A model generated the notes under the pieces. That model saw only the letters and a list, made by a program, of their open reading frames with translations, was not told the origin of the DNA and searched no databases. A stretch of 64,000 nucleotides of DNA from Candidatus Methylomirabilota bacterium (GTDB lineage: Bacteria > Methylomirabilota > Methylomirabilia > Rokubacteriales > CSP1-6), in NCBI GenBank assembly GCA_046726415.1, contig JBKPAK010000013.1, positions 8,330 through 72,329 of the forward strand, in the 5' to 3' direction. A program made the translations under genes and the position numbers. This document shows, piece by piece, positions 2,270-15,827 of this stretch; within the stretch, counting starts at the first letter, position 1, and each line of letters starts with the position of its first letter.

Positions 2270-3330
2270 GGCTTGGCGTGATTGGCTATGGCTACTGGGG
2301 CCCGAACGTGGTCCGTAACTTCTCCATCCAGCCGGACTGCCAAGTGGTAGCCATCTGCGACAAGAGCCCTAAGGCGATGGCTCAAGTGTTGAGCCGCCAC
2401 CCGTCGGCCCGCGTCACCGCCGATCCGGCGGAGCTGATGGAATCGCCGGACATCGACGCGATCGCCATCGTCACCCCGGTGTCCACGCACTACGACTTGG
2501 CCAAGAAGGCGCTGGTGAACGGAAAGCACGTCTTCGTCGAGAAGCCATTCACGACCACGTCAGTCCAGGCCGAGGAGCTGATCGAGCTGGCCGACCGCAG
2601 GAACCTCCAGATCATGGTGGACCACACGTTTCTCTTCACCGGGGCGGTGTCGAAGATCAAGGAGCTCATCGCGGGGGAGGTGCTGGGACCTCTCTACTAT
2701 TACGATTCGACCCGGGTCAACCTGGGGCTCTTCCAGCACGACGTGAACGTCATCTGGGACCTGGGTCCCCACGATGTGTCCATCGTGGACCATTTGATCG
2801 GGCTCGACCCGGACATGGTGGTGGCTACCGGGGGCGCGCACCTGAACGGTCTGGCGGACATGGCGTACATCACACTCTACTTTCCCGACAACATTGTCGC
2901 TCACATCAACATCAACTGGCTCTCCCCCGTCAAGGTGCGCACGACGTTGATCGGCGGGCAGCGGAAGATGCTGGTGTGGAACGATCTCGAGCCGACCGAA
3001 AAGATCAAGGTCTACGACAAGGGAGTCGAGGCGCGCACGGAGGAAGGGCGCTACCGGCTCCTGGTGAGCTACCGGAGCGGAGACATGTGGGCACCGCGGG
3101 TGGAGGAGGCCGAGGCCTTGCAGCGCGAGGCCCGCTACTTCGTGGACTGCATAGCTTCGGGAGAGAAGCCTTTCAACGACGGACGCGCCGGCCTGCGCGT
3201 GGTGAGAATCCTGGAGGCGGCCGACGAGTCGCTCAAGCGGCGGCGGGAGATCGTCTTCGGAGCGTCACGTCGGCCGGAGGTCGGGCGGGGGGCCCTCCGG
3301 GTCCGTCCCGTTTGCGCCCTGAGCGGATGA
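2263..3330 (+). CDS. Gfo/Idh/MocA family oxidoreductase (WbpB/WlbA-like nucleotide-sugar 3-dehydrogenase)
   Basis: LGVIGYGYWG Rossmann motif, HVFVEKP, WDLGPHD. Confidence 0.92.
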   Translation: MLRLGVIGYGYWGPNVVRNFSIQPDCQVVAICDKSPKAMAQVLSRHPSARVTADPAELMESPDIDAIAIVTPVSTHYDLAKKALVNGKHVFVEKPFTTTSVQAEELIELADRRNLQIMVDHTFLFTGAVSKIKELIAGEVLGPLYYYDSTRVNLGLFQHDVNVIWDLGPHDVSIVDHLIGLDPDMVVATGGAHLNGLADMAYITLYFPDNIVAHININWLSPVKVRTTLIGGQRKMLVWNDLEPTEKIKVYDKGVEARTEEGRYRLLVSYRSGDMWAPRVEEAEALQREARYFVDCIASGEKPFNDGRAGLRVVRILEAADESLKRRREIVFGASRRPEVGRGALRVRPVCALSG

Positions 3331-4484
3331 TCACGAGGGCTCAGCGGGAGCAGACGAGAGGGCCGGCGGGTGACACCGAGGACGGGACAGTCTGTCCACG
3401 GGTCGTTCGGCACGTCCTCAACGAGGAGCTGTTCAGAGGGGCGTTGACCAGGGAGCGAAAGCGCTCGGATCGCTCCAATGAGCCTTTCGTTCTCCTGCTC
3501 CTGGGCTTCAACCCGGGCCTGGGCGCCGATTCCTCGTCGATCTGGGACGGTGCGATTGACGCCGTGGCGGCGGCCACGGGTGACGCAGACGTCGCCGGGT
3601 GGGTCGCGCGGCGGTCGCTGATCGGTGTCATCGTGCCTGAGATCCGTGCGTCGGATCTGCTGAATGCGCGGGCAGGTATCGAGGCGCGACTCCGTCGCGA
3701 GATCGCCAAGCGCCTGGATACGGCAACGGTGGAAAGGCTGTCGCTTCGGTTCCACATCTATCCCGAGCCGAGGCGTGCGGAAGAGAAAGGACCAGGGCCG
3801 GTCGATCCGGTTTTCTACCCGGAGCACCGCTCGCGCCGGGTGCAGGGGATGAGCTACGATACGATCAAGCGGGGGCTGGACGTCATCGGCAGCCTCACGC
3901 TCTTGTTAGGACTGTCGCCCCTTTTCGTGCTCATCGCCGGCCTGGTGAAGCTGGGGTCTCATGGGCCGGTCGTGTTCAGACAGGTGCGAATCGGGCAGAT
4001 GATGAAGCCCTTCACGATGCTCAAGTTCAGAACGATGTATTCGGACGCCGATCACAAGGTCCATCAGGAGTTTGTCAGCTCCTTCATCAGGGCCAGCGGC
4101 CAGGCTGACCAGCCCAGCCGGAACGGATTCTTCAAGCTCACCAACGATTCACGCGTGACGCCCGTCGGACGCATTCTTCGGAAGACGAGCCTGGACGAGT
4201 TGCCTCAGCTGTGGAACGTGCTCCGGGGCGACATGTCGCTCGTCGGGCCCCGACCCCCGCTCCGGTACGAGCTCGAGCAGTACGAGCCGTGGCATCGCGA
4301 TCGGCTCGTGGAGGCCAAGCCGGGGATCACAGGACCCTGGCAAGTGGCCGGACGCAGCCGGACGACCTTCGACGAGATGGTGCGCCTGGACCTCCGCTAC
4401 GCCAGAACGCGCTCCCTCTGGACCGACGTCAAGATTCTTCTCGCCACCCCAGCGGCGGTCCTGTCGGGGAAGGGAGCGTGTTGA
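3327..4484 (+). CDS. Priming (undecaprenyl-phosphate) sugar transferase with N-terminal degenerate GGDEF-like domain
   Basis: Bac_transf motifs KRGLDV, FRQVRIG, KFRTM, DSRVTPVGRILRKTSLDELPQLWNVLRGDMSLVGPRP, KPGITG; the N-terminus NEELFRGALTRERKRSDRSNEPFVLLLL resembles the 1784-2269 protein. ATG at 3327 (ATGA overlap). Confidence 0.92.
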   Translation: MITRAQREQTRGPAGDTEDGTVCPRVVRHVLNEELFRGALTRERKRSDRSNEPFVLLLLGFNPGLGADSSSIWDGAIDAVAAATGDADVAGWVARRSLIGVIVPEIRASDLLNARAGIEARLRREIAKRLDTATVERLSLRFHIYPEPRRAEEKGPGPVDPVFYPEHRSRRVQGMSYDTIKRGLDVIGSLTLLLGLSPLFVLIAGLVKLGSHGPVVFRQVRIGQMMKPFTMLKFRTMYSDADHKVHQEFVSSFIRASGQADQPSRNGFFKLTNDSRVTPVGRILRKTSLDELPQLWNVLRGDMSLVGPRPPLRYELEQYEPWHRDRLVEAKPGITGPWQVAGRSRTTFDEMVRLDLRYARTRSLWTDVKILLATPAAVLSGKGAC

Positions 4485-4489
4485 CTGGC

Positions 4490-6334
4490 ATGAACATCCT
4501 GGGTATCTCCGCCTTCTATCACGACAGCGCGGCCTGCATCGTCCGCGACGGGGAAATCGTCGCGGCCGCCCAGGAAGAGCGCTTCACGCGGAAGAAGCAC
4601 GACGCCGGGTTCCCGAAGCAGGCCCTGGACTACTGCCTCCGGGAGTCGGCGATCCGCCCCGAAGAGCTGGACTACGTGGCCTTCTACGACAAGCCGCTCC
4701 TGAAGTTCGAGCGCCTGCTGGAGACCTATGTCGCCTACGCGCCGGCGGGGTTCCGATCGTTCATAAACGCGATGCCCGTGTGGATCCGTCAGAAGCTCCA
4801 CCTGCCGCGCGAGCTCGACTGCGGACTCGGCGGCCGATACAAGGGCGGCTACATCTTCACGGAGCATCACGAGTCCCATGCGGCAAGCGCCTTCTTCCCG
4901 TCCCCCTTTGAGGAGGCGGCGATCCTTACGCTCGACGGCGTGGGGGAGTGGGCGACCGGGAGCTACGGGGTCGGGCGGGGCAATCGGATCCAGCTGACGC
5001 ATGAGCTGCGGTTTCCCCACTCACTCGGCCTCCTCTACTCTGCCTTCACGTATTTCACCGGCTTCAAAGTGAATTCCGGGGAATACAAGCTCATGGGCCT
5101 CGCCCCGTACGGAGAGCCGCGATTCGCCGACGCCATCCTGCGCCATCTCGTCGATCTAAAGGCCGATGGATCGTTTCGTATGGACATGTCGTACTTCAAC
5201 TACTGCCAAGGCTTGACCATGACCAGTCGCAAGTTCGACGCGCTGTTCGAGGGGCCCCCGCGGCGACCGGAGTCGCAGCTGACCCAGCGCGAGATGGACA
5301 TCGCGGCGTCCATCCAGACGGTGACTGAGGAAATCATGCTCCGGTGCGGGCGGCACATTGCGCGAGAGACAGGCATGCGCAATCTCGTGATGGCGGGGGG
5401 GGTGGCGCTCAACTGCGTGGGCAACGGCCGGATCCTCCGGGAGGGTGACTTCGACCAGATCTTCATCCAGCCCGGCGCCGGCGATGCTGGCGGCGCCATC
5501 GGCGCGGCCCTCTTCGTATGGCACCAGCTGCTCGGGAAGCCCCGGCGGGCTGACGGCGTGCGCGACTTCCAGCGCGGTTCGCTCCTGGGACCCCGCTACA
5601 GCAACGAGGAGATCCGCGCCTACCTCGACAGCATCGGGGCGCGCTACCACTACCACGCGGACGAGGCGACTCTTCTCGAGGTCGTCGCGGACGATATCGC
5701 CGCCGAGAAGGTCGTCGGCCACTTTCACGGGCGGATGGAGTTCGGGCCTCGCGCCCTGGGCGCGCGCTCGATCATCGGCGACGCGCGCTCGTCGAAGATG
5801 CAGTCCCTCATGAATTTAAAGATCAAGTTCCGCGAGTCCTTCCGCCCCTTTGCGCCCTGCGTCCTCCGCGAGGACGTGCACGAGTGGTTCGAGATGGAGC
5901 CGAACGCGGACAGTCCGTACATGCTTCTTGTCGCCGATGTCCAGCCGGACAAGCGGGTGCCGGTCGGCGAGCACGAGCTGGGCGAGATGACCGGCGTTGA
6001 CCGGCTCCTCAAGGTCGTCCGGTCGAAGGTGCCGGCGGTGACGCACGTCGACTACTCGGCGCGCGTTCAGACGGTCGATGCCGAGCGGCACGGGCGGTTC
6101 TATCGATTGATGAAGAAGTTCAAGGAAAAGACCGGCTGCCCTGTGATCATCAATACTAGCTTCAACGTGCGGAGCGAGCCCATCGTGTGCTCCCCAGAGC
6201 ACGCGTACCGGTGCTTCATGGCGTGCAACATGGATGTGCTCGTGCTGGAGGACTTCGTGCTCGACAAGGAAGAGCAGCCCAAAGCCAAGCAGCACGAGAT
6301 CGACGAATACCTCGCTCAGTTCGACCTGGACTAA
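4490..6334 (+). CDS. O-carbamoyltransferase, NodU/CmcH/SxtI family
   Basis: MNILGISAFYHDSAA, QEERFTRKKH, EHHESHAASAF, GEYKLMGLAPYG, AGGVALNC, EFGPRALGARS, KFRESFRPFAP, INTSFNVR. Confidence 0.96.
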   Translation: MNILGISAFYHDSAACIVRDGEIVAAAQEERFTRKKHDAGFPKQALDYCLRESAIRPEELDYVAFYDKPLLKFERLLETYVAYAPAGFRSFINAMPVWIRQKLHLPRELDCGLGGRYKGGYIFTEHHESHAASAFFPSPFEEAAILTLDGVGEWATGSYGVGRGNRIQLTHELRFPHSLGLLYSAFTYFTGFKVNSGEYKLMGLAPYGEPRFADAILRHLVDLKADGSFRMDMSYFNYCQGLTMTSRKFDALFEGPPRRPESQLTQREMDIAASIQTVTEEIMLRCGRHIARETGMRNLVMAGGVALNCVGNGRILREGDFDQIFIQPGAGDAGGAIGAALFVWHQLLGKPRRADGVRDFQRGSLLGPRYSNEEIRAYLDSIGARYHYHADEATLLEVVADDIAAEKVVGHFHGRMEFGPRALGARSIIGDARSSKMQSLMNLKIKFRESFRPFAPCVLREDVHEWFEMEPNADSPYMLLVADVQPDKRVPVGEHELGEMTGVDRLLKVVRSKVPAVTHVDYSARVQTVDAERHGRFYRLMKKFKEKTGCPVIINTSFNVRSEPIVCSPEHAYRCFMACNMDVLVLEDFVLDKEEQPKAKQHEIDEYLAQFDLD

Positions 6335-6343
6335 GTGCGCACT

Positions 6344-6790
6344 ATGGCCTTCATCAGCGTCGACTGGAGACCGAGCGAGCGCCATCTGCAGGGGTTTGGC
6401 ACGGCGTGTGTCGTGGCGTTCGGAGCGCTGGGGGCCTGGGCGCTGTGGCGCCACAGCCTGTTCGGTGTGAGCCTCGAGTCCGGGAGCGCCGGGCGCGCGG
6501 CCGTGATCCTGTGGGGGCTCGCCGTCGTGTGTGGAGTGCTGCGCGCAGTCGCCCCGCGGTGGCTGCGGCCCCTGTACGTCGGGCTGACGGCGGTGAGCCT
6601 GCCCATCGGCTTCGTGATGTCCCACGCCGTGATCGGCCTCGTGTTCTTCGGGGTCGTGACCCCCATCGCCCTAGTGTTTCGGCTGATGGGGCGGGACCCC
6701 CTGCGGCGCGCGTTCGATCGCGAGGCAGCGACGTACTGGACGCGGCGAAGTCCGGTCGTTGACCTGGCGAGATACTACCGCCAGTTCTAG
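6344..6790 (+). CDS. SxtJ family membrane protein
   Basis: Several TM segments, FFGVVTPIALVFRLMGRDPL..YW..YYRQF C-terminus; directly follows the carbamoyltransferase. Alternative GTG start at 6335. Confidence 0.85.
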   Translation: MAFISVDWRPSERHLQGFGTACVVAFGALGAWALWRHSLFGVSLESGSAGRAAVILWGLAVVCGVLRAVAPRWLRPLYVGLTAVSLPIGFVMSHAVIGLVFFGVVTPIALVFRLMGRDPLRRAFDREAATYWTRRSPVVDLARYYRQF

Positions 6791-6799
6791 GAGGGTAAC

Positions 6800-7003
6800 G
6801 TGGCCCAGAGCGGTGGGAGACAACAAGAATTCGAGCGGATCGCCAACACGGGGCGGCCGAGCGTGGTGATGGAGTTCCTGGTCTACCTGCGGGAGAACAA
6901 GAAGTGGTGGATGCTACCCATCCTAATCATGATCTTCGGTATGGGGGCGCTGGTTCTGCTTGCCGGTACGCCGGTCGCGCCGTTCATCTACACCCTTTTC
7001 TAG
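6800..7003 (+). CDS. DUF5989/SxtK-like small membrane protein ending in PFIYTLF
   Basis: EFLVYLRENKKWWMLPI, then one TM, then APFIYTLF*; RBS GGAGG before the GTG at 6800. Confidence 0.88.
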   Translation: MAQSGGRQQEFERIANTGRPSVVMEFLVYLRENKKWWMLPILIMIFGMGALVLLAGTPVAPFIYTLF

Positions 7004-7039
7004 GTGGAGCACGCTCGAGGGGCGGCTGGCCGTCGAGCC

Positions 7040-7330
7040 AGCAGGCGACGGCGTGACTGTTATGCGGCCGGCCCGCCAGCCTCATCCTTCGAAGTGATCG
7101 GGCCCCCACTCGTCCTTCAGCTCTTGGACCGCTCGGACCGCATCGTCGCCCGCCAGTCGTCGCGGTGTGCGGGTCGCACCCGGATCGAGAGGCGCGACCG
7201 CATCGCGCCCCGGGTGCCTTGGCGCCACGTCGCGGTCCGCCGCGACCGGGCGGGCAGTGGCTGGACCAGGGGCCGCACGCTGAGGTGGCGATGGCGCCTG
7301 ATTCGCTTGCGGACATTGGCGTCGTCGACC
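7040..7330 (-). mobile_element. Degraded IS701-family transposase remnant
   Basis: Minus strand encodes LPARSRRTATWRQGTRGAMRSR..RVRPAHRDDWR and, in another frame, ELKDEWGPDHFEG*GW, matching IS701 motifs (WRTVTWREGT..RVRPAHRD; ELKxELGLDHFEGRGW). Boundaries approximate. Confidence 0.75.
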
Positions 7331-7388
7331 CGGGGCGTGACCTCGCGCAGCGAGGCAAAGTGTGTCACGTCAGACTCTTCCTGTCGCG

Positions 7389-8186
7389 CTACTCGCCATG
7401 TGGAACGCGAGTGATGCCTTGGCGCGGCAAATCTCGGCCGCCCGTACCTGCCCCTGGGCCTAGTAGGACCCAGAATCGATAGAACTGCAGCTTAACAAGC
7501 TGCTCGATGACGGTCTGGATGCCATGCCACGTGGTCGTCCAGTTCTCAGGGGTGTGGTTACCGAATACCGGCAGACAGTGGACCTGAATGCCGGCCGGCC
7601 TCAGCACCGCCTGGTAAACGAGGGACGAGCGCCGACTCCGGAGAGCGGGCACAACAACGACGACCGAGCCCAGATGCTCCTTGGTGAGAAAGGTCCGGAG
7701 CTGGTAGGCGGCATTGAGGCTGTAGGGTTCGACTTCCCGTATGGCAATGATCTCTGGGTTCTGCACTCGGGCGAGTCGGCCCATCAATTCCGCGATGCCC
7801 CTGGATACAGGGTTGGTCAGCTCAGCATCACGGTCCGACACCTGAGCGGGGACGAGGACCCTGGCCGCGAGCCCCGTCTGCTGCAGGGCGGCTGCGCGTT
7901 CGAACAGGAGATAGCTTGGATCGAAGTTCTCCACGAAGATGGCGTCGCTTGGAGCAGTCTCCTCGTCACACACGAGGCTCCATCCTATCGAGGGGATCCA
8001 GAAGTTGCGAGTCAAGAACGCGGTGAGCAGAAGGACGAAGCATGCCACTAGGCGCCATGCCCTCGCCTTGGTGATCTTCGGCTCTGTCACCGCCTCGACC
8101 CGAGGGTGAGCGTAGTGAAGAAGGTCTCGTGCGGCTCCCTTTCGAAGAGAGTCGTGGCGCGCGCCTTGAAGGGCGAATGCCTCCAT
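7389..8186 (-). CDS. YdcF/DUF218 (ElyC/SanA-like) envelope protein, divergent
   Basis: N-terminal TM, APSDAIFV, ERAAAL, SLNAAYQLRTFL, VVVVPALRSRRS (family has TSxxHxxRA); true start may be downstream. Confidence 0.65.
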   Translation of the reverse strand: MEAFALQGARHDSLRKGAARDLLHYAHPRVEAVTEPKITKARAWRLVACFVLLLTAFLTRNFWIPSIGWSLVCDEETAPSDAIFVENFDPSYLLFERAAALQQTGLAARVLVPAQVSDRDAELTNPVSRGIAELMGRLARVQNPEIIAIREVEPYSLNAAYQLRTFLTKEHLGSVVVVVPALRSRRSSLVYQAVLRPAGIQVHCLPVFGNHTPENWTTTWHGIQTVIEQLVKLQFYRFWVLLGPGAGTGGRDLPRQGITRVPHGE

Positions 8187-11339: not shown

Positions 11340-11770
11340 TGGTTACGGTGCAGCGTGGTGTGAAGAGGCGGCGCCAAGTGAGCGATGCGTTCGGCAGAAT
11401 GACAAGAGCCGTTCGCGCTGCCTGACGACCGCAGTCGCTCAAGGCGCCGGTGGCCATGTGAAACTGCCCCAGAAGCTGGACATCCTGTCCATGCGTCCCG
11501 CCAAGACGGCGCTTGAAATGGTACGTGCCGGGAGTGGCAGCAGGGACCGGTCGAGATCATAATTCACGAAGCCTTGCTCTTTCAGCCAGCGGACGAAAGT
11601 CCACTGAATGAGGTACGACGCGTTGGTCGTCAGGCCGCCGTCAGTCGTGGCTCTGCAGATGTAGACGCGCCAATAGCAAAGAAGATCGCGCCCGGCGCAG
11701 AGCGTACCGTTGAGGCAGCAGAGAATCACTCTCAGCTTGCGCGCTGCCGGGAAACCGCGCTTGAACGAGC
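11340..11770 (-). pseudogene. Frameshifted 3' remnant of a FemAB/GNAT-family gene
   Basis: KLRVILCCLNGTLCAG..ATTDGGLTTNASYLIQWTFVRWLKEQGFVNYDLD then, in a shifted frame, TPGTYHFKRRLGG parallels the intact 16160-17254 protein (KMKVILGLSNGQPSAG..ATADTGLRNKAAYAVQWRVIEWLK..YDL..NPGVYSFKVGLSG); cut at the IS21 left end. Confidence 0.75.
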
Positions 11771-11881
11771 TGCCCTCGGTGGACAGGCAAAACCCGCCAG
11801 TCGTGGACACCTGAAACCGGCCAGTGAGGTAGCAGCCCCAGGACGTTGACGCGGCGGAAGCCGATGTGGTTCCCCGCCGGG

Positions 11882-13355
11882 ATGGCCAACATCTCGGGAG
11901 ACGGTGAGAGGCAACAGATTCTCGCTCTGGGACGGCTCGGCTGGCCGCTCCGCCGCATCGAACAGGCGACCGGGGATCCGGCGGCGAGATGGCGAGTGCC
12001 TACCGCAAGGCCGCTGGGATCGCGATCCGGGTCCCCCGCCAGCGCCAGCCGCCGCCAAATCCGGCCAGTCAGGTGTCCACCGAGCTGGCAAACCCGGCCA
12101 GTGAGATCCTATGAAGGCAAGGAAGAGCGGGCCGCTGCTGGTAAGCTCCTTCAACCTTGTTCGCCCAAACGAGGGAGAGAGGAGCCAAGACGATGACCAG
12201 AGCGACCCGCCGCGCCGAGTATACCGGACCCACCGCGCCGTGCCTGTACCTGGCGTTCGAGTTAGGGATCGCCGAATGGAAGCTCGGGTTCGCGACCGAC
12301 CCGGGTGCGAAACCACAGGTGCGGGCGATGCCGGGGCGCGATCTCGAGCGGCTGACGAGGGAGATCGTGGAAGCCAAGAAATGGTTTGGCTTGCCGTCGG
12401 GCACCCCGGTGCGGAGTTGCTACGAGGCGGGGCGCGACGGCTTCTGGCTACACCGGTACTTGACCTCAGTCGGAATTGAAAACGCCGTGGTGGACTCGTC
12501 GAGTATCGAGGTGAATCGACGGCTGCGGCGAGCGAAGTCGGACCGGCTAGACGTCCGCAAGTTAGTCGGAATGCTGCTGCGCCACCACGCGGGCGAGCGC
12601 AATGTCTGGAGCGTCGTGCGAGTGCCGACCGAGGAGGAGGAGGATCGGCGCCAGCTGCATCGCGAGCTCCGGACGTTGAAGAAGGAACGCACTCGGGTGA
12701 CGAACCGGGTGAAGGGCCTGCTGGCGAGCCACGGCGTCCGGCTGCCGAAGGGCCTGGCCGTCCGATCCGCGCTGGAGACGGTGCGCCTGTGGGACGGCTC
12801 GCCCTTGCCGGCGGCGCTGCGGGCACGGTTGGAGCGGGAACGGGAGCACCGCCGGCGCCTACTACGCGCCCCCACCGGGCTGGCTGGGGCGCGCGGTCGC
12901 CGTCCAGTGGGATGAGCATCACGTCCGCTTGCTCGATCACACGACCGGCACGCTCCTCCGCGAACACCCGCGCCAGCCTCGCGGGCGCCACGCGATCCAT
13001 CCCGCCGATCGGCCCTGCGCACGCCGCCGACCACGCTGGCCCTGCTGGCCCGGGCCGCGCGGGCCGGCGCCGCCATCGGCACCTCTGTGAGGCCATCCAC
13101 CGCCGTGATGGCGAGCCCGGCGTGCGCCGCATCCTCGGCGTCCTCGCCCTCGTGCGCAAGCACGGCGCCGTCGTGGTCACGGAGGCCGGCGCCGCCTTGG
13201 AGTTCGGGGTCGCCGACTACCGCTTCGTCCGCCGCTATCTCGAGCGGCACCCGGCGGGGCCCCTCACCCTGCGGCAGGTCGATCTGCTCATCCGGGAGCT
13301 CACCCACTACCGCGACGTCATCGCGCGGAAAACCCAGGAGGTCCCCATGCCATGA
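11882..13355 (+). pseudogene. istA: IstA transposase, interrupted and lacking its DDE core
   Basis: N-terminus MANISGDGERQQILALGRLGWPLRRIEQATG; C-terminal part resumes near 12851 as AGAYYAPPPGWLGRAVAVQWDEHHVRLLDHTTGTLLREH and, after a frameshift, LCEAIHRRDGEPGVRRILGVLAL..LRQVDLLIRELTHYRDVI. Confidence 0.82.
12102..12850 (+). mobile_element. Truncated IS110-family element (non-coding left end plus N-terminal RuvC/DEDD part of recombinase, ATG 12193)
   Basis: LYLAFELG..WKLGF..SCYEAGRDGFWLHRYL..VVDSSSIEVNRRLRRAKSDRLD..RQLHRE; the C-terminal Tnp_20 domain is missing. Confidence 0.9.
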
Positions 13356-14101
13356 ACCTCGTCGAACGACAACGCGCCCTGCGGCAGCTCCGCTGCTCTG
13401 GCATGGCCGGCGGTCTCGAGGCCTGTCTGCTCGAAGCCCAGGCCGAGAAACTGGCCCCCATCGATTTCCTTGCCCGCCTCGTCCTGGACGAACTCCTCCG
13501 CCACCAGAATCGCCTTCTCGAGCGCCGCGTGAAGCAGGCGGGCTTCCGCGACGCGGACAAGCGCCTCGACACGTTCGACTTCGAGTTCAACAAGAAGATG
13601 AACCGCGCCCTCGTCTTCGAGCTGACCACCGCGCGCTGGATCACCCAGCGCCAGGACGCCTTGTTCCTCGGGGCGCCGGGCGTGGCGAAATCCCGCCTGG
13701 CCATCGGCCTCGGCCTCAAAGCCATTGAGCACGGCCATCGCGTGTTGTTCGCCACCGCCACCGACCTCATCACCGCCCTCACGCGCGCCGCCAGCCACGG
13801 CCGCCTGGACGAGCACCGTCCCCCGACTGCTCATCATCGATGAGATCGGCTATCTCACCGATCGACCGCGCCGGAGCCAACTTGTTCTTCCAGCTCATTA
13901 GCCGTCGGCCCCATGATCCTCACCAGCAACCAGAGCTTTGCGAGCTGGGGCGAGGTCTTCGGGGACCGGATCATCGCGACCGCAATCCTCGATCGGGTCT
14001 TCCATCACGCCATCACGGTGAACATCCGCGGCAATTGCTACCGGCGGAAGGACAAGCTCAAAGCCGGTCTTGTCAAGCCGAGCGAGGCCACCACTACTTG
14101 A
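13352..14101 (+). pseudogene. istB: IstB ATPase helper, frameshifted
   Basis: LDTFDFEFN, degenerate Walker A GAPGVAKS, LLIIDEIGY, MILTSNQSFASWGEVFGDRIIATAILDRVFHH spread across three frames. Confidence 0.9.
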
Positions 14102-14304
14102 CCCGGGAGGTGGGAAAAACGATCCTGTCCGCGCTCATTTCTGCACCGGAAAATAGCTAAGCTAGGCCCAAACCACTTGGTAGAGCCTGTCGAGGAGCGG
14201 CGCGTGCCCTCGTGCCCGTCGAGTTACTTCGACGGCGAGCAGGTGAGCATCAACGCTCCACCCAGGGTCAGGACGGAGGTGTTGGCCTCGAAGGACGAGT
14301 GCCT

Positions 14305-15687
14305 TCAAGACCGCGTGGTTCCTGCAGGGTACGACCGGGGCCCCGCCACGAGCGTGGTAACCGGGGTCCGCGGAAGGGCGCGATAGTCCATGAGGGCGAA
14401 GACGGTGGCGAGCCAGAGGATGCTCAGCTTGTTGAATGACGCCTCGCTGAAGTTGTGAATGATGGCCAGGATGATCAGCACGAACCGGAGGGCGCCGTCG
14501 GGTGCGCGGCGCACCGATGCCCCTCTGGCCTGACGGTAGCCGGCGATCAGCAAGAGTGCCAGGAGACCAACGCCAACCAGACCGCCGTTCAGGTACGTCT
14601 CGAGATAGCCATTGTGGGCCTGAATGATTCCGCCCACGCTGTCGTGCAACTGCACCAGCCGCTGCCCAGCCCAAAAACTGTTGAAACCCGCGCCCACTAG
14701 CGGATTGTCCTGGTACCTGAGCAGAATGGGCCAGATCTCGGTGCGAGTGGTCAGAGTCATATCCCGCCCCAGGCTCCGGACAAAGGCTTCCTTGATGGCG
14801 AAGAAGGAGTCGAATATCCATAAGGCGAGAATCGCTCCCAGGCCATAGGCTTCGACTCGCCAGAGGCTCTGTCGCGCTGAGGGTCGAGCAAGTGCAAGGA
14901 GGAGTACGGTTCCAAGGATAGCGCACACCAGGGACGTGGCACTGTCGGCTATGATCAGAAGATACCACGACATCAGCAGCACGGAGGCGCGTCCGACCCA
15001 TAGGGTCTTGGCCGCGACGCCTCGCGGCAAGCCGCTTGCCTGCCAAAGGTCCCAGAGTAGGAACAGGCTGGCCACGAGGGCGAGCATGCCCAGGCTGTTT
15101 TTTTGCGTGGTCACGCCAACGTACATTAATTCGTTGAGGTTATAGCCCACGTAGACACGGCCCAAGTCCGGAAAATAACGAATGAGGACCACTGAAGTGG
15201 GGACACAGATGTAGGCAGCCCTCACGAAGGCCGCCTTAACAGCTTCGGCCGGATCGCGACCGGTCAAAAGCACCAGCGTCATAACAACATTGCCGAGATC
15301 CTTGACTATTCGTTTGACGGTGATCAAGGGATAGTCTGACCAGAGAACGCTCATGAGCCAGAAAAGGTAGAATATTGCCAACCATCGATTGTCATCCAGG
15401 ACTGCCGACGGATGAATATGCCGTCTGATGAGGACAATCAGCCCTATCACAATCAGAGACATATAGATGATCGCCTCAACCGCATGGCCCTCGTCGTAGG
15501 ATTGAAGTGAGTCACTGACTTGGCCTGGGTCGGCGAACCAACTCGTGACCGAACGTGAGGCATAGATCACCGCCCACGTCACGACGACCCACGTGGTCGG
15601 GGACACGGAGGGGCGCGCCCGGGCGTCAGCATACAGAAGCCAGGCAATGCCAAGGCTCGCTGCGAGGAGGGCGAAGTTTCCAGTCAT
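14305..15687 (-). CDS. wzy: O-antigen ligase/polymerase family membrane protein (likely Wzy)
   Basis: About 10-12 TMs, GVTTQKNSLG, ADSATS, LTTRTEIW, PLVGAGFNSFW, AHNGYLE. Confidence 0.85.
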   Translation of the reverse strand: MTGNFALLAASLGIAWLLYADARARPSVSPTTWVVVTWAVIYASRSVTSWFADPGQVSDSLQSYDEGHAVEAIIYMSLIVIGLIVLIRRHIHPSAVLDDNRWLAIFYLFWLMSVLWSDYPLITVKRIVKDLGNVVMTLVLLTGRDPAEAVKAAFVRAAYICVPTSVVLIRYFPDLGRVYVGYNLNELMYVGVTTQKNSLGMLALVASLFLLWDLWQASGLPRGVAAKTLWVGRASVLLMSWYLLIIADSATSLVCAILGTVLLLALARPSARQSLWRVEAYGLGAILALWIFDSFFAIKEAFVRSLGRDMTLTTRTEIWPILLRYQDNPLVGAGFNSFWAGQRLVQLHDSVGGIIQAHNGYLETYLNGGLVGVGLLALLLIAGYRQARGASVRRAPDGALRFVLIILAIIHNFSEASFNKLSILWLATVFALMDYRALPRTPVTTLVAGPRSYPAGTTRS

Positions 15688-15827
15688 AGTACTCTGGTGC
15701 CCCGCGACCAAGACGGCGGTCGCCCGAGGGCCATCGCGAGGAGCGGCGCTAGTCGTAGAGGTATGTTGCTGCTACCAGGTTGAGCTTCATGGTGGCCAGG
15801 ATCTTCCTGGCGTGATAGCAGAGTCTC

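Follow-up and report, generated by a model that had tools for sequence, protein, structure and literature searches.

The carbamoyltransferase operon in the analysed DNA of a Candidatus Methylomirabilota bacterium ends with the gene of a microprotein which, judged by its profile score, is a member of the DUF5989 family, and the C-terminal APFIYTLF tail is the best-conserved part of that family. In form, this tail is identical to the tyrosine-bearing hexapeptide at the C-terminus of bacterial MBOAT proteins. We tentatively propose, with somewhat less than even confidence, that the microprotein provides the tyrosine for a carbamoyl relay which works without an MBOAT and serves an extracytoplasmic sugar polymer. 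The evidence is presented below together with the other readings of the module, the main rival being a non-covalent membrane adaptor.

Within the window, i.e. the whole stretch of 64,000 nucleotides analysed, the module forms a tight operon with the carbamoyltransferase gene first, followed by the SxtJ gene and, as the last member, the microprotein gene (Table 1). The carbamoyltransferase begins with MNILGISAFYHD at position 4490 and its stop codon abuts the start of SxtJ. A scan of positions 4000-7500 for promoters and terminators revealed none above the shuffled expectation. The module is surrounded by an exopolysaccharide cluster. Its genes include those of a chain-length protein of the Wzz/GNVR type (136-1776), an oxidoreductase of the Gfo/Idh/MocA type, a polyprenyl-phosphate sugar transferase ending at 4484 and, on the minus strand, a polymerase of the Wzy type (14305-15711). 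Two ORFs of this cluster, namely that of the sugar transferase in its N-terminal portion and the one preceding the oxidoreductase gene, have in common a similar stretch of the form ...F(R)..L..ERKRS.R......LLL.... (1508-2269 and 2976-3900, both plus strand), which was read from the translations, has no Pfam match and may represent a repeated domain, either regulatory or membrane-proximal. Immediately 3' of the module, the other strand carries an ORF of 265 residues (7389-8186) with neither a Pfam nor an NCBIfam match.

Table 1. Features of the carbamoyltransferase-SxtJ-microprotein module and of its SGNH partner in the window.
Feature	Position	Strand	Evidence or description
O-carbamoyltransferase, NodU/CmcH/TobZ type, 614 aa	4490..6334	+	Carbam_trans_N E 4.1e-104, Carbam_trans_C E 1.6e-69
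SxtJ-family membrane protein, 151 aa	6335..6790	+	PF19588 E 2.9e-10
GGAGG ribosome-binding site	6790..6794	+	5 nt 5' of the microprotein GTG, overlaps the SxtJ stop codon; read directly
DUF5989 (SxtK-like) microprotein, 67 aa	6800..7003	+	GTG start read from the sequence; PF19451, conservation, charge asymmetry
Microprotein, basic segment	residues 1-36		includes LRENKKWW; predicted cytoplasmic
Microprotein, TM helix	residues 37-57		single hydrophobic stretch of 21 residues
Microprotein, uncharged tail	residues 58-67		TPVAPFIYTLF; Tyr64 (codon 6989-6991) is fourth from the C-terminus
Membrane-anchored SGNH/GDSL enzyme, 391 aa	10148..11323	-	Lipase_GDSL_2 E 1.2e-8, ALGX E 1.5e-7, own HMM E 6.4e-55

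The assignment of the microprotein to DUF5989 is based on the PF19451 profile, which matches with an E-value of 4.3e-18 and 65.5 bits, the gathering cut-off being 27, and is covered from position 2 to 49 of its 49 positions. The anatomy given in a preliminary description of this DNA, namely the basic segment LRENKKWW, one hydrophobic helix, a linker and a C-terminal FIYTLF, is completely recovered in the reading frame. The family itself is large, with 2,246 representative clusters at 50% identity distributed over many Gram-negative phyla. A search of the Protein Atlas for look-alikes of the microprotein outside PF19451 gave no usable match. Among viral contigs a single weak locus was found, whose microprotein shares 38% identity and is adjoined by neither a carbamoyltransferase nor SxtJ. 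Longer, fused forms of the microprotein were likewise sought and none scored, which is weak evidence.

In an alignment of 33 homologues with 40-78% identity, the residues Lys35, Pro40, Ala60, Pro61, Phe62, Ile63, Tyr64 and Thr65 are invariant, and Leu66 and Phe67 are conserved to at least 90%. A word-index-free phmmer search against 1.84 billion representatives provided 2,246 matches at E<=1e-3, and the tails were tabulated for the best 150 of them. The preliminary description had made its case depend on the position of the tyrosine and on its spacing to the C-terminus; both are near-fixed, as among these best 150 of 2,246 the tyrosine is present in all 150 and stands fourth from the end in 144, while the exact C-terminal pattern F.Y..F is found in 128. 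The 144 tails are also uniform at the neighbouring positions, with Pro at -7 in 142, Phe at -6 in 136, Ile at -5 in 133 and Phe at -1 in 136 (again among the best 150 of 2,246). Since both the phmmer ranking and the locus search seeded with the microprotein draw on the tail, loci were also retrieved via SxtJ alone; a query consisting of residues 1-58, intended as tail-free sampling, had returned two matches and was replaced by this SxtJ-anchored genome search. SxtJ was detected in 56 of 251 genomes of the phylum, which are kin and not independent samples, and 29 loci were kept. In 28 of these 29 loci a complete downstream microprotein ends with xPFIY[TA][LIVM]F, the 29th being cut by the end of the locus; one of the 29 (L099) stems from an unpublished genome, and its removal leaves 27 of 28. 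Chance occurrences of the motif are rare, as deduced from the 90,770 frames of at least 45 residues in the window's own genome, only two of which end with F.Y..F, both of them DUF5989 genes.

The orientation of the microprotein in the membrane can be predicted from its charges. In the alignment of 33 sequences, on average 6.4 Lys/Arg residues per sequence precede the TM helix, 2.9 of them within the last ten residues before it, and the twelve residues behind the helix contain neither Lys/Arg nor Asp/Glu. According to the positive-inside rule this asymmetry strongly favours a topology with the N-terminus inside and the C-terminus outside, and the tail motif is therefore predicted to be extracytoplasmic. 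The charge counts (6.4 versus 0 Lys/Arg) thus agree, at the level of a prediction, with the placement of the motif outside by the preliminary description. A metagenomic representative of 182 residues (P0098) consists of an SxtJ C-terminus (...SYYRQS), a linker of 10 residues and a complete DUF5989 sequence. It is the sole fusion of SxtJ and microprotein among the best 150 of 2,246 matches and is either genuine or due to the loss of a stop codon; the fusion of the SxtJ C-tail to the microprotein N-terminus implies that both ends lie on one side of the membrane.

Acyl shuttling by a tyrosine was discovered recently and has so far been linked with enzymes of the MBOAT and AT3 types and with groups attached as esters. 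In every tyrosine shuttle known to us, the passage of the acyl group across the membrane onto the tyrosine is the task of an MBOAT or AT3 domain. The prototype DltX possesses an invariant tyrosine in the FXYXXF 'acyl shuttle', which is located close to the C-terminus on the extracellular side; the MBOAT DltB loads D-Ala onto this tyrosine and the SGNH enzyme DltD removes it (PMC12148441). PatA and other bacterial MBOATs have this hexapeptide as a fused extension of their own C-terminus, where the tyrosine is auto-acylated, and the acyl-tyrosine intermediate is proven for the FXYXXF shuttle, which the text of the same source presents for acyl esters only (PMC12148441). The comparison of C-termini called for in the preliminary description was performed with 24 MBOAT frames from 151 genomes of the same phylum, used in place of DltX sequences, and 23 of the 24 share the end F-[LIV]-Y-x-x-F with DUF5989. 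Within these 23 tails, position -5 is occupied by Leu (13), Ile (8) or Val (2), position -3 by Phe in 18, position -2 by Gln in 17 and position -7 by Pro in 8, as for example in NPFIYFRF. The PFIYTLF end of the microprotein agrees with the MBOAT tails at positions -7, -6, -5, -4 and -1 and in its free C-terminus, and differs at -3/-2, where it has Thr-Leu in place of an aromatic residue followed by Gln or Arg.

The DltX-like architecture claimed at the outset stands as far as the basic N-terminal flank, the single TM helix and the uncharged FIYxxF-COOH tail are concerned, but it is accompanied neither by sequence homology nor by an MBOAT. The DltX profile (PF12459) does not match the microprotein at E<=10 in Pfam, and in the window's own genome, which is 98% complete, neither DltX nor an MBOAT (PF03062) was found; the control genomes of B. 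subtilis and L. lactis do match DltX. By these profile searches the microprotein falls outside the DltX family. Further similarities to the DltX/DltB/DltD system are the predicted outside location of the C-terminus, the presence of a cytoplasmic activating enzyme and of a membrane-anchored SGNH enzyme predicted to lie outside, and the linkage of the genes in an operon (features of the Dlt system after the description in PMC12148441). In contrast to the Dlt system, the membrane partner is here the unrelated three-helix protein SxtJ, activation is due to a carbamoyltransferase instead of an adenylating enzyme plus carrier protein, and the transferred group would be a carbamate and not an ester. 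Systems of the PatA/PatB type share the (P)F[ILV]YxxF-COOH tail and an SGNH-type acceptor enzyme with the module; however, the motif is here placed on a free-standing microprotein, the donor chemistry differs and an MBOAT is found near the module in only 2 of the 78 neighbourhoods examined. In two loci (L078:12238-15819 and L076:997-1680) the module directly adjoins an MBOAT ending with FIYFDF or FLYNQF, and in the former it additionally adjoins two or three SGNH genes, so that two putative shuttle systems lie side by side.

The gene context was analysed in a set of 81 loci, 80 of them public plus the window, where C, J and K denote carbamoyltransferase, SxtJ and microprotein, respectively. 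The order CJK prevails (55 loci), followed by JKC (9), CK (5), KCJ (2) and KC (1); the remaining loci show JK (6 loci, three at a contig end) or K alone (3). Cultivable carriers among the loci retrieved with the microprotein include Singulisphaera sp. GP187, Aquisphaera insulae and Magnetospirillum sp. UT-4. Accordingly, a carbamoyltransferase is located beside the microprotein in 72 of the 81 loci. Beyond the module the neighbourhoods are highly variable, with 528 ORFs falling into 434 clusters, 387 of them singletons; the annotation covered the representatives of the other 47. As in the window, Bac_transf, Wzy and Wzz genes of polyprenyl-phosphate-dependent polysaccharide clusters occur in other neighbourhoods. 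The genome contains a second DUF5989 gene, which encodes 60 residues ending with APFIYTLF and resides at a contig end (C82:22421-22600, minus strand). This end shares a 39-bp tandem repeat, with 96.7% identity over 180 bp and in the same orientation, with the start of another contig, which begins with a second carbamoyltransferase and a second SxtJ (C156:199-2233, minus strand; loci L083 and L081). The view of the second gene as an orphan was rejected because of this shared repeat. As read from the contig ends, the second module is composed of SxtJ, carbamoyltransferase, an array of at least nine copies of the 39-bp repeat and the microprotein, the repeat having broken the assembly, and both DUF5989 genes of the genome hence belong to carbamoyltransferase/SxtJ modules.

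A related arrangement is known from saxitoxin clusters, where sxtI (carbamoyltransferase), sxtJ, sxtK (165 bp) and sxtL (GDSL lipase) are tabulated with consecutive accessions (PMC2679770, PMC2684587, PMC2885083). In these published tables SxtJ and SxtK are listed as 'unknown' and SxtL as a suggested decarbamoylase (PMC2679770, PMC2684587, PMC2885083); SxtJ and SxtK are considered to act 'in conjunction with' SxtI (PMC2679770). The window and the sxt clusters thus correspond in the sequence of carbamoyltransferase, SxtJ, an ORF of ca. 54 residues in the sxt case and a GDSL lipase, and the second gene of the window module matches the Pfam family SxtJ itself. A putative equivalence of SxtK with DUF5989 and of SxtL with the SGNH subfamily described below is suggested by position and size in the published tables. 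With its three-gene operon and an SGNH gene nearby (3.1 kb here), the window holds a module of the SxtI/SxtJ/SxtK(/SxtL) type. It differs from the sxt clusters in being embedded in an exopolysaccharide cluster instead of a toxin cluster and in the distance of the SGNH gene.

The AF2 model of SxtJ (pLDDT 92.8) contains three helices predicted at residues 15-39, 49-72 and 74-117, and a Foldseek search with the model against the PDB gave nothing at E<=0.001, that is, neither a PDB analogue nor an MBOAT-like fold. The charges of SxtJ favour a location of both ends inside, which would require an even number of spans, at odds with the three helices of the model. In an alignment of 53 sequences the conserved residues are concentrated in the basic C-tail (Arg116, Asp121, Trp135, Tyr147, Gln150 and the terminal Phe), which carries 8.7 Lys/Arg per sequence; the hydrophobic part is marked by the conserved helix-breakers Pro74, Pro90/Gly92 and Pro110, and the membrane part of these 53 sequences contains neither a conserved His nor any other residue with an obvious catalytic role. 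The aromatic end of SxtJ pointed out in the preliminary description is present in the window as YYRQF, and Tyr147 and Gln150 are conserved to at least 90% in the 53 homologues, but the tyrosine is exchanged for Met in the JKC loci inspected. Tyr147 as a first relay station was rejected for this reason, and a tyrosine-to-tyrosine relay via SxtJ appears unlikely. A complex prediction for SxtJ, the SGNH enzyme and the microprotein resulted in an ipSAE of 0.01, which counts neither for nor against binding.

These properties of SxtJ bear directly on the main rival explanation, according to which SxtJ and the microprotein would build a small membrane scaffold to which the soluble carbamoyltransferase is drawn on the cytoplasmic side, so that the lipid-linked repeat unit is carbamoylated prior to flipping. 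The tail would then pack or dock, for example onto the short outer hairpin of SxtJ or at the lipid interface, and the tyrosine would never be modified. Such a non-covalent adaptor is a serious possibility, even if we rather doubt it. It would fit the tight coupling of the module with its adjacent carbamoyltransferase, the concentration of SxtJ conservation in a basic tail that is probably cytoplasmic and would lend itself to the binding of a soluble enzyme, the lack of a catalytic-looking membrane residue in SxtJ, the 46 of 81 loci in which the SGNH partner is not seen nearby, and the wording 'in conjunction with' SxtI in the published account of SxtJ and SxtK (PMC2679770). However, it leaves unexplained why the last eight residues, which are uncharged and predicted to face outwards, are the most invariant part of the microprotein, why the shuttle hexapeptide of MBOATs and DltX is found at the exact C-terminus, and why the operon so often incorporates an SGNH enzyme that is predicted to face outwards.

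In another scenario the carbamoyltransferase would load a lipid carrier, e.g. polyprenyl phosphate, while SxtJ and the microprotein, presumably comparable to ArnE/ArnF or GtrA, would act as a small flippase or escort, and the SGNH enzyme or the tyrosine tail would receive the group outside. This would supply the membrane route that the carbamoyl relay lacks, and both the small, multi-helix build of SxtJ with its conserved helix-breakers and the occurrence of the module in polyprenyl-phosphate-dependent polysaccharide clusters are compatible with it. Nevertheless, SxtJ showed no similarity to a known flippase fold in the Foldseek comparison with the PDB, and we know of no lipid-linked carbamoyl donor. 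We consider this scenario improbable.

The neighbourhoods suggest a candidate for the acceptor enzyme of the proposed shuttle. A GDSL/SGNH protein forms the largest recurrent neighbour cluster (12 ORFs in 11 loci). An HMM was seeded from this cluster together with the SGNH protein of the window and applied to flanks of up to 10 kb per side; it detected the subfamily in 35 of the 81 loci, in 27 of them inside the module or no more than 300 bp from it and in 8 farther away, and did not detect it in the available flanks of the other 46. In the 27 close cases the gene follows K, precedes C or is inserted at the J-K or C-J junction. Among the 29 SxtJ-anchored loci, a gene of this subfamily lies within 1.5 kb in eight. 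Most of 40 N-termini of the subfamily show basic residues ahead of a hydrophobic anchor, as does that of the window protein, which starts with MRIKRIITNAG, and the catalytic domain is consequently predicted to be outside. In the alignment Gly79, Ser81 (the GDS serine) and His358 of block V are invariant, and Asp144 of block III is conserved to at least 90%. The AF2 model of the window protein (pLDDT 80.7) displays an SGNH fold, with DltD among the Foldseek matches (E 4.7e-4). Judged by these sequence features, the enzyme is a candidate for the final transferase. In the window its gene is 3.1 kb away from the module and on the other strand, which makes the link weaker here than in loci with an adjacent SGNH gene. 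Between the SGNH and Wzy genes (ca. 11730-14160), the translations reveal IS-like ORFs, among them a transposase-like one (12157-12915) and an IstB-like ATPase (13352-13843), and an insertion may have split the SGNH gene off from the rest of the cluster. Elsewhere in the genome, five or six additional genes of this subfamily stand in unrelated surroundings.

The closest structural match of the SGNH model is CgnD (PDB 8a2n; Z 20.1, rmsd 2.7, 228 residues aligned). CgnD is an SGNH-type hydrolase of the crocagin pathway that was assigned the role of a leader peptidase for a ribosomal peptide, with very slow activity; the crocagin cluster also encodes the carbamoyltransferase CgnI, its product is carbamoylated, and it is described as the only cluster of its kind with a carbamoyltransferase (PMC10070186). 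The similarity to an enzyme from a carbamoyltransferase-containing cluster is a lead and not evidence, and on this analogy SGNH enzymes of the CgnD type may have a carbamoyl-related role. CgnD differs in that it was purified as a soluble protein and is described with no microprotein partner (PMC10070186).

The SGNH enzyme also gives rise to the reading that the tyrosine tail shuttles another acyl group, e.g. acetyl, to the SGNH protein, the carbamoyltransferase being a separate neighbour acting on the same polymer. The subfamily indeed carries the Pfam ALGX/GDSL signatures typical of polysaccharide O-acetylation, and the FXYXXF motif is presented for acyl esters only in the published text (PMC12148441). 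The module, however, contains no membrane enzyme that uses acyl-CoA, the genome search, which covered the MBOAT family, found no MBOAT, and the microprotein tracks the carbamoyltransferase (72 of 81 loci) far more than the SGNH enzyme (35 of 81). We regard this reading as highly improbable.

Returning to the carbamoyl relay, we envisage the following sequence of events. The cytoplasmic carbamoyltransferase would activate carbamoyl phosphate and would be tethered to the membrane by the basic C-tail of SxtJ, which might sit beside the TM helix of the microprotein. The PFIYTLF tail on the outer side would accept the carbamoyl group on Tyr64 in the form of an aryl carbamate and present it to the catalytic serine of the outward-facing, membrane-anchored SGNH enzyme. 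Finally, the SGNH enzyme would pass the carbamoyl group on to the polysaccharide of the surrounding Wzx/Wzy-type cluster. We infer every chemical step of this scheme, the contacts of SxtJ and the crossing of the membrane by the carbamoyl group; the orientations of the microprotein and of the SGNH enzyme are predictions. What the analysis demonstrates is the structure of the genes, the family assignments, the conservation of the tail, its identity in motif with MBOAT tails and the association with the SGNH subfamily. Taken together, the carbamoyl-carrier interpretation offered in the preliminary description is partly supported, and the recurrent SGNH neighbour, which would be the counterpart of DltD and PatB, adds to this support.

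The critical point of the scheme is the membrane. The carbamoyltransferase needs ATP and carbamoyl phosphate and must therefore be cytoplasmic, and the tyrosine is predicted to be outside, with no crossing route evident. Since the genome contains no MBOAT, the protein that loads the tyrosine in every known case is absent, and as SxtJ shows neither a conserved catalytic residue nor an MBOAT-like fold, the passage of the carbamoyl group across the membrane is unexplained. SxtJ is the only candidate for a replacement of the MBOAT. Moreover, carbamoyl-serine enzyme intermediates usually turn over slowly. The most far-reaching version of the proposal is that carbamoyltransferase, SxtJ, the DUF5989 tyrosine arm and the SGNH enzyme constitute an undescribed transmembrane relay for the carbamoylation of molecules outside the cytoplasm, in which the PF[ILV]YxxF-COOH shuttle of MBOAT systems has evolved without an MBOAT; we consider it unlikely on balance. 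In the literature searched, DUF5989 is not mentioned, carbamoyltransferases are never linked with SGNH, MBOAT and tyrosine, and FxYxxF is absent outside the work on PatA and DltX.

If this relay exists, SxtJ would represent a novel type of acyl conduit through the membrane, perhaps operating via a lipid-linked carbamoyl donor, and the shuttle principle would extend to carbamates. The same machine would explain sxtJ, sxtK and sxtL of the saxitoxin clusters, and surface polysaccharides would be carbamoylated after export. The finding that underlies these considerations is a shuttle hexapeptide on a widespread microprotein, with a carbamoyltransferase beside it in most loci and an SGNH enzyme, predicted to face outwards, often nearby as well. 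The gap in the annotation of SxtJ and SxtK, which has been open since the saxitoxin clusters were first described, thereby becomes a testable hypothesis.
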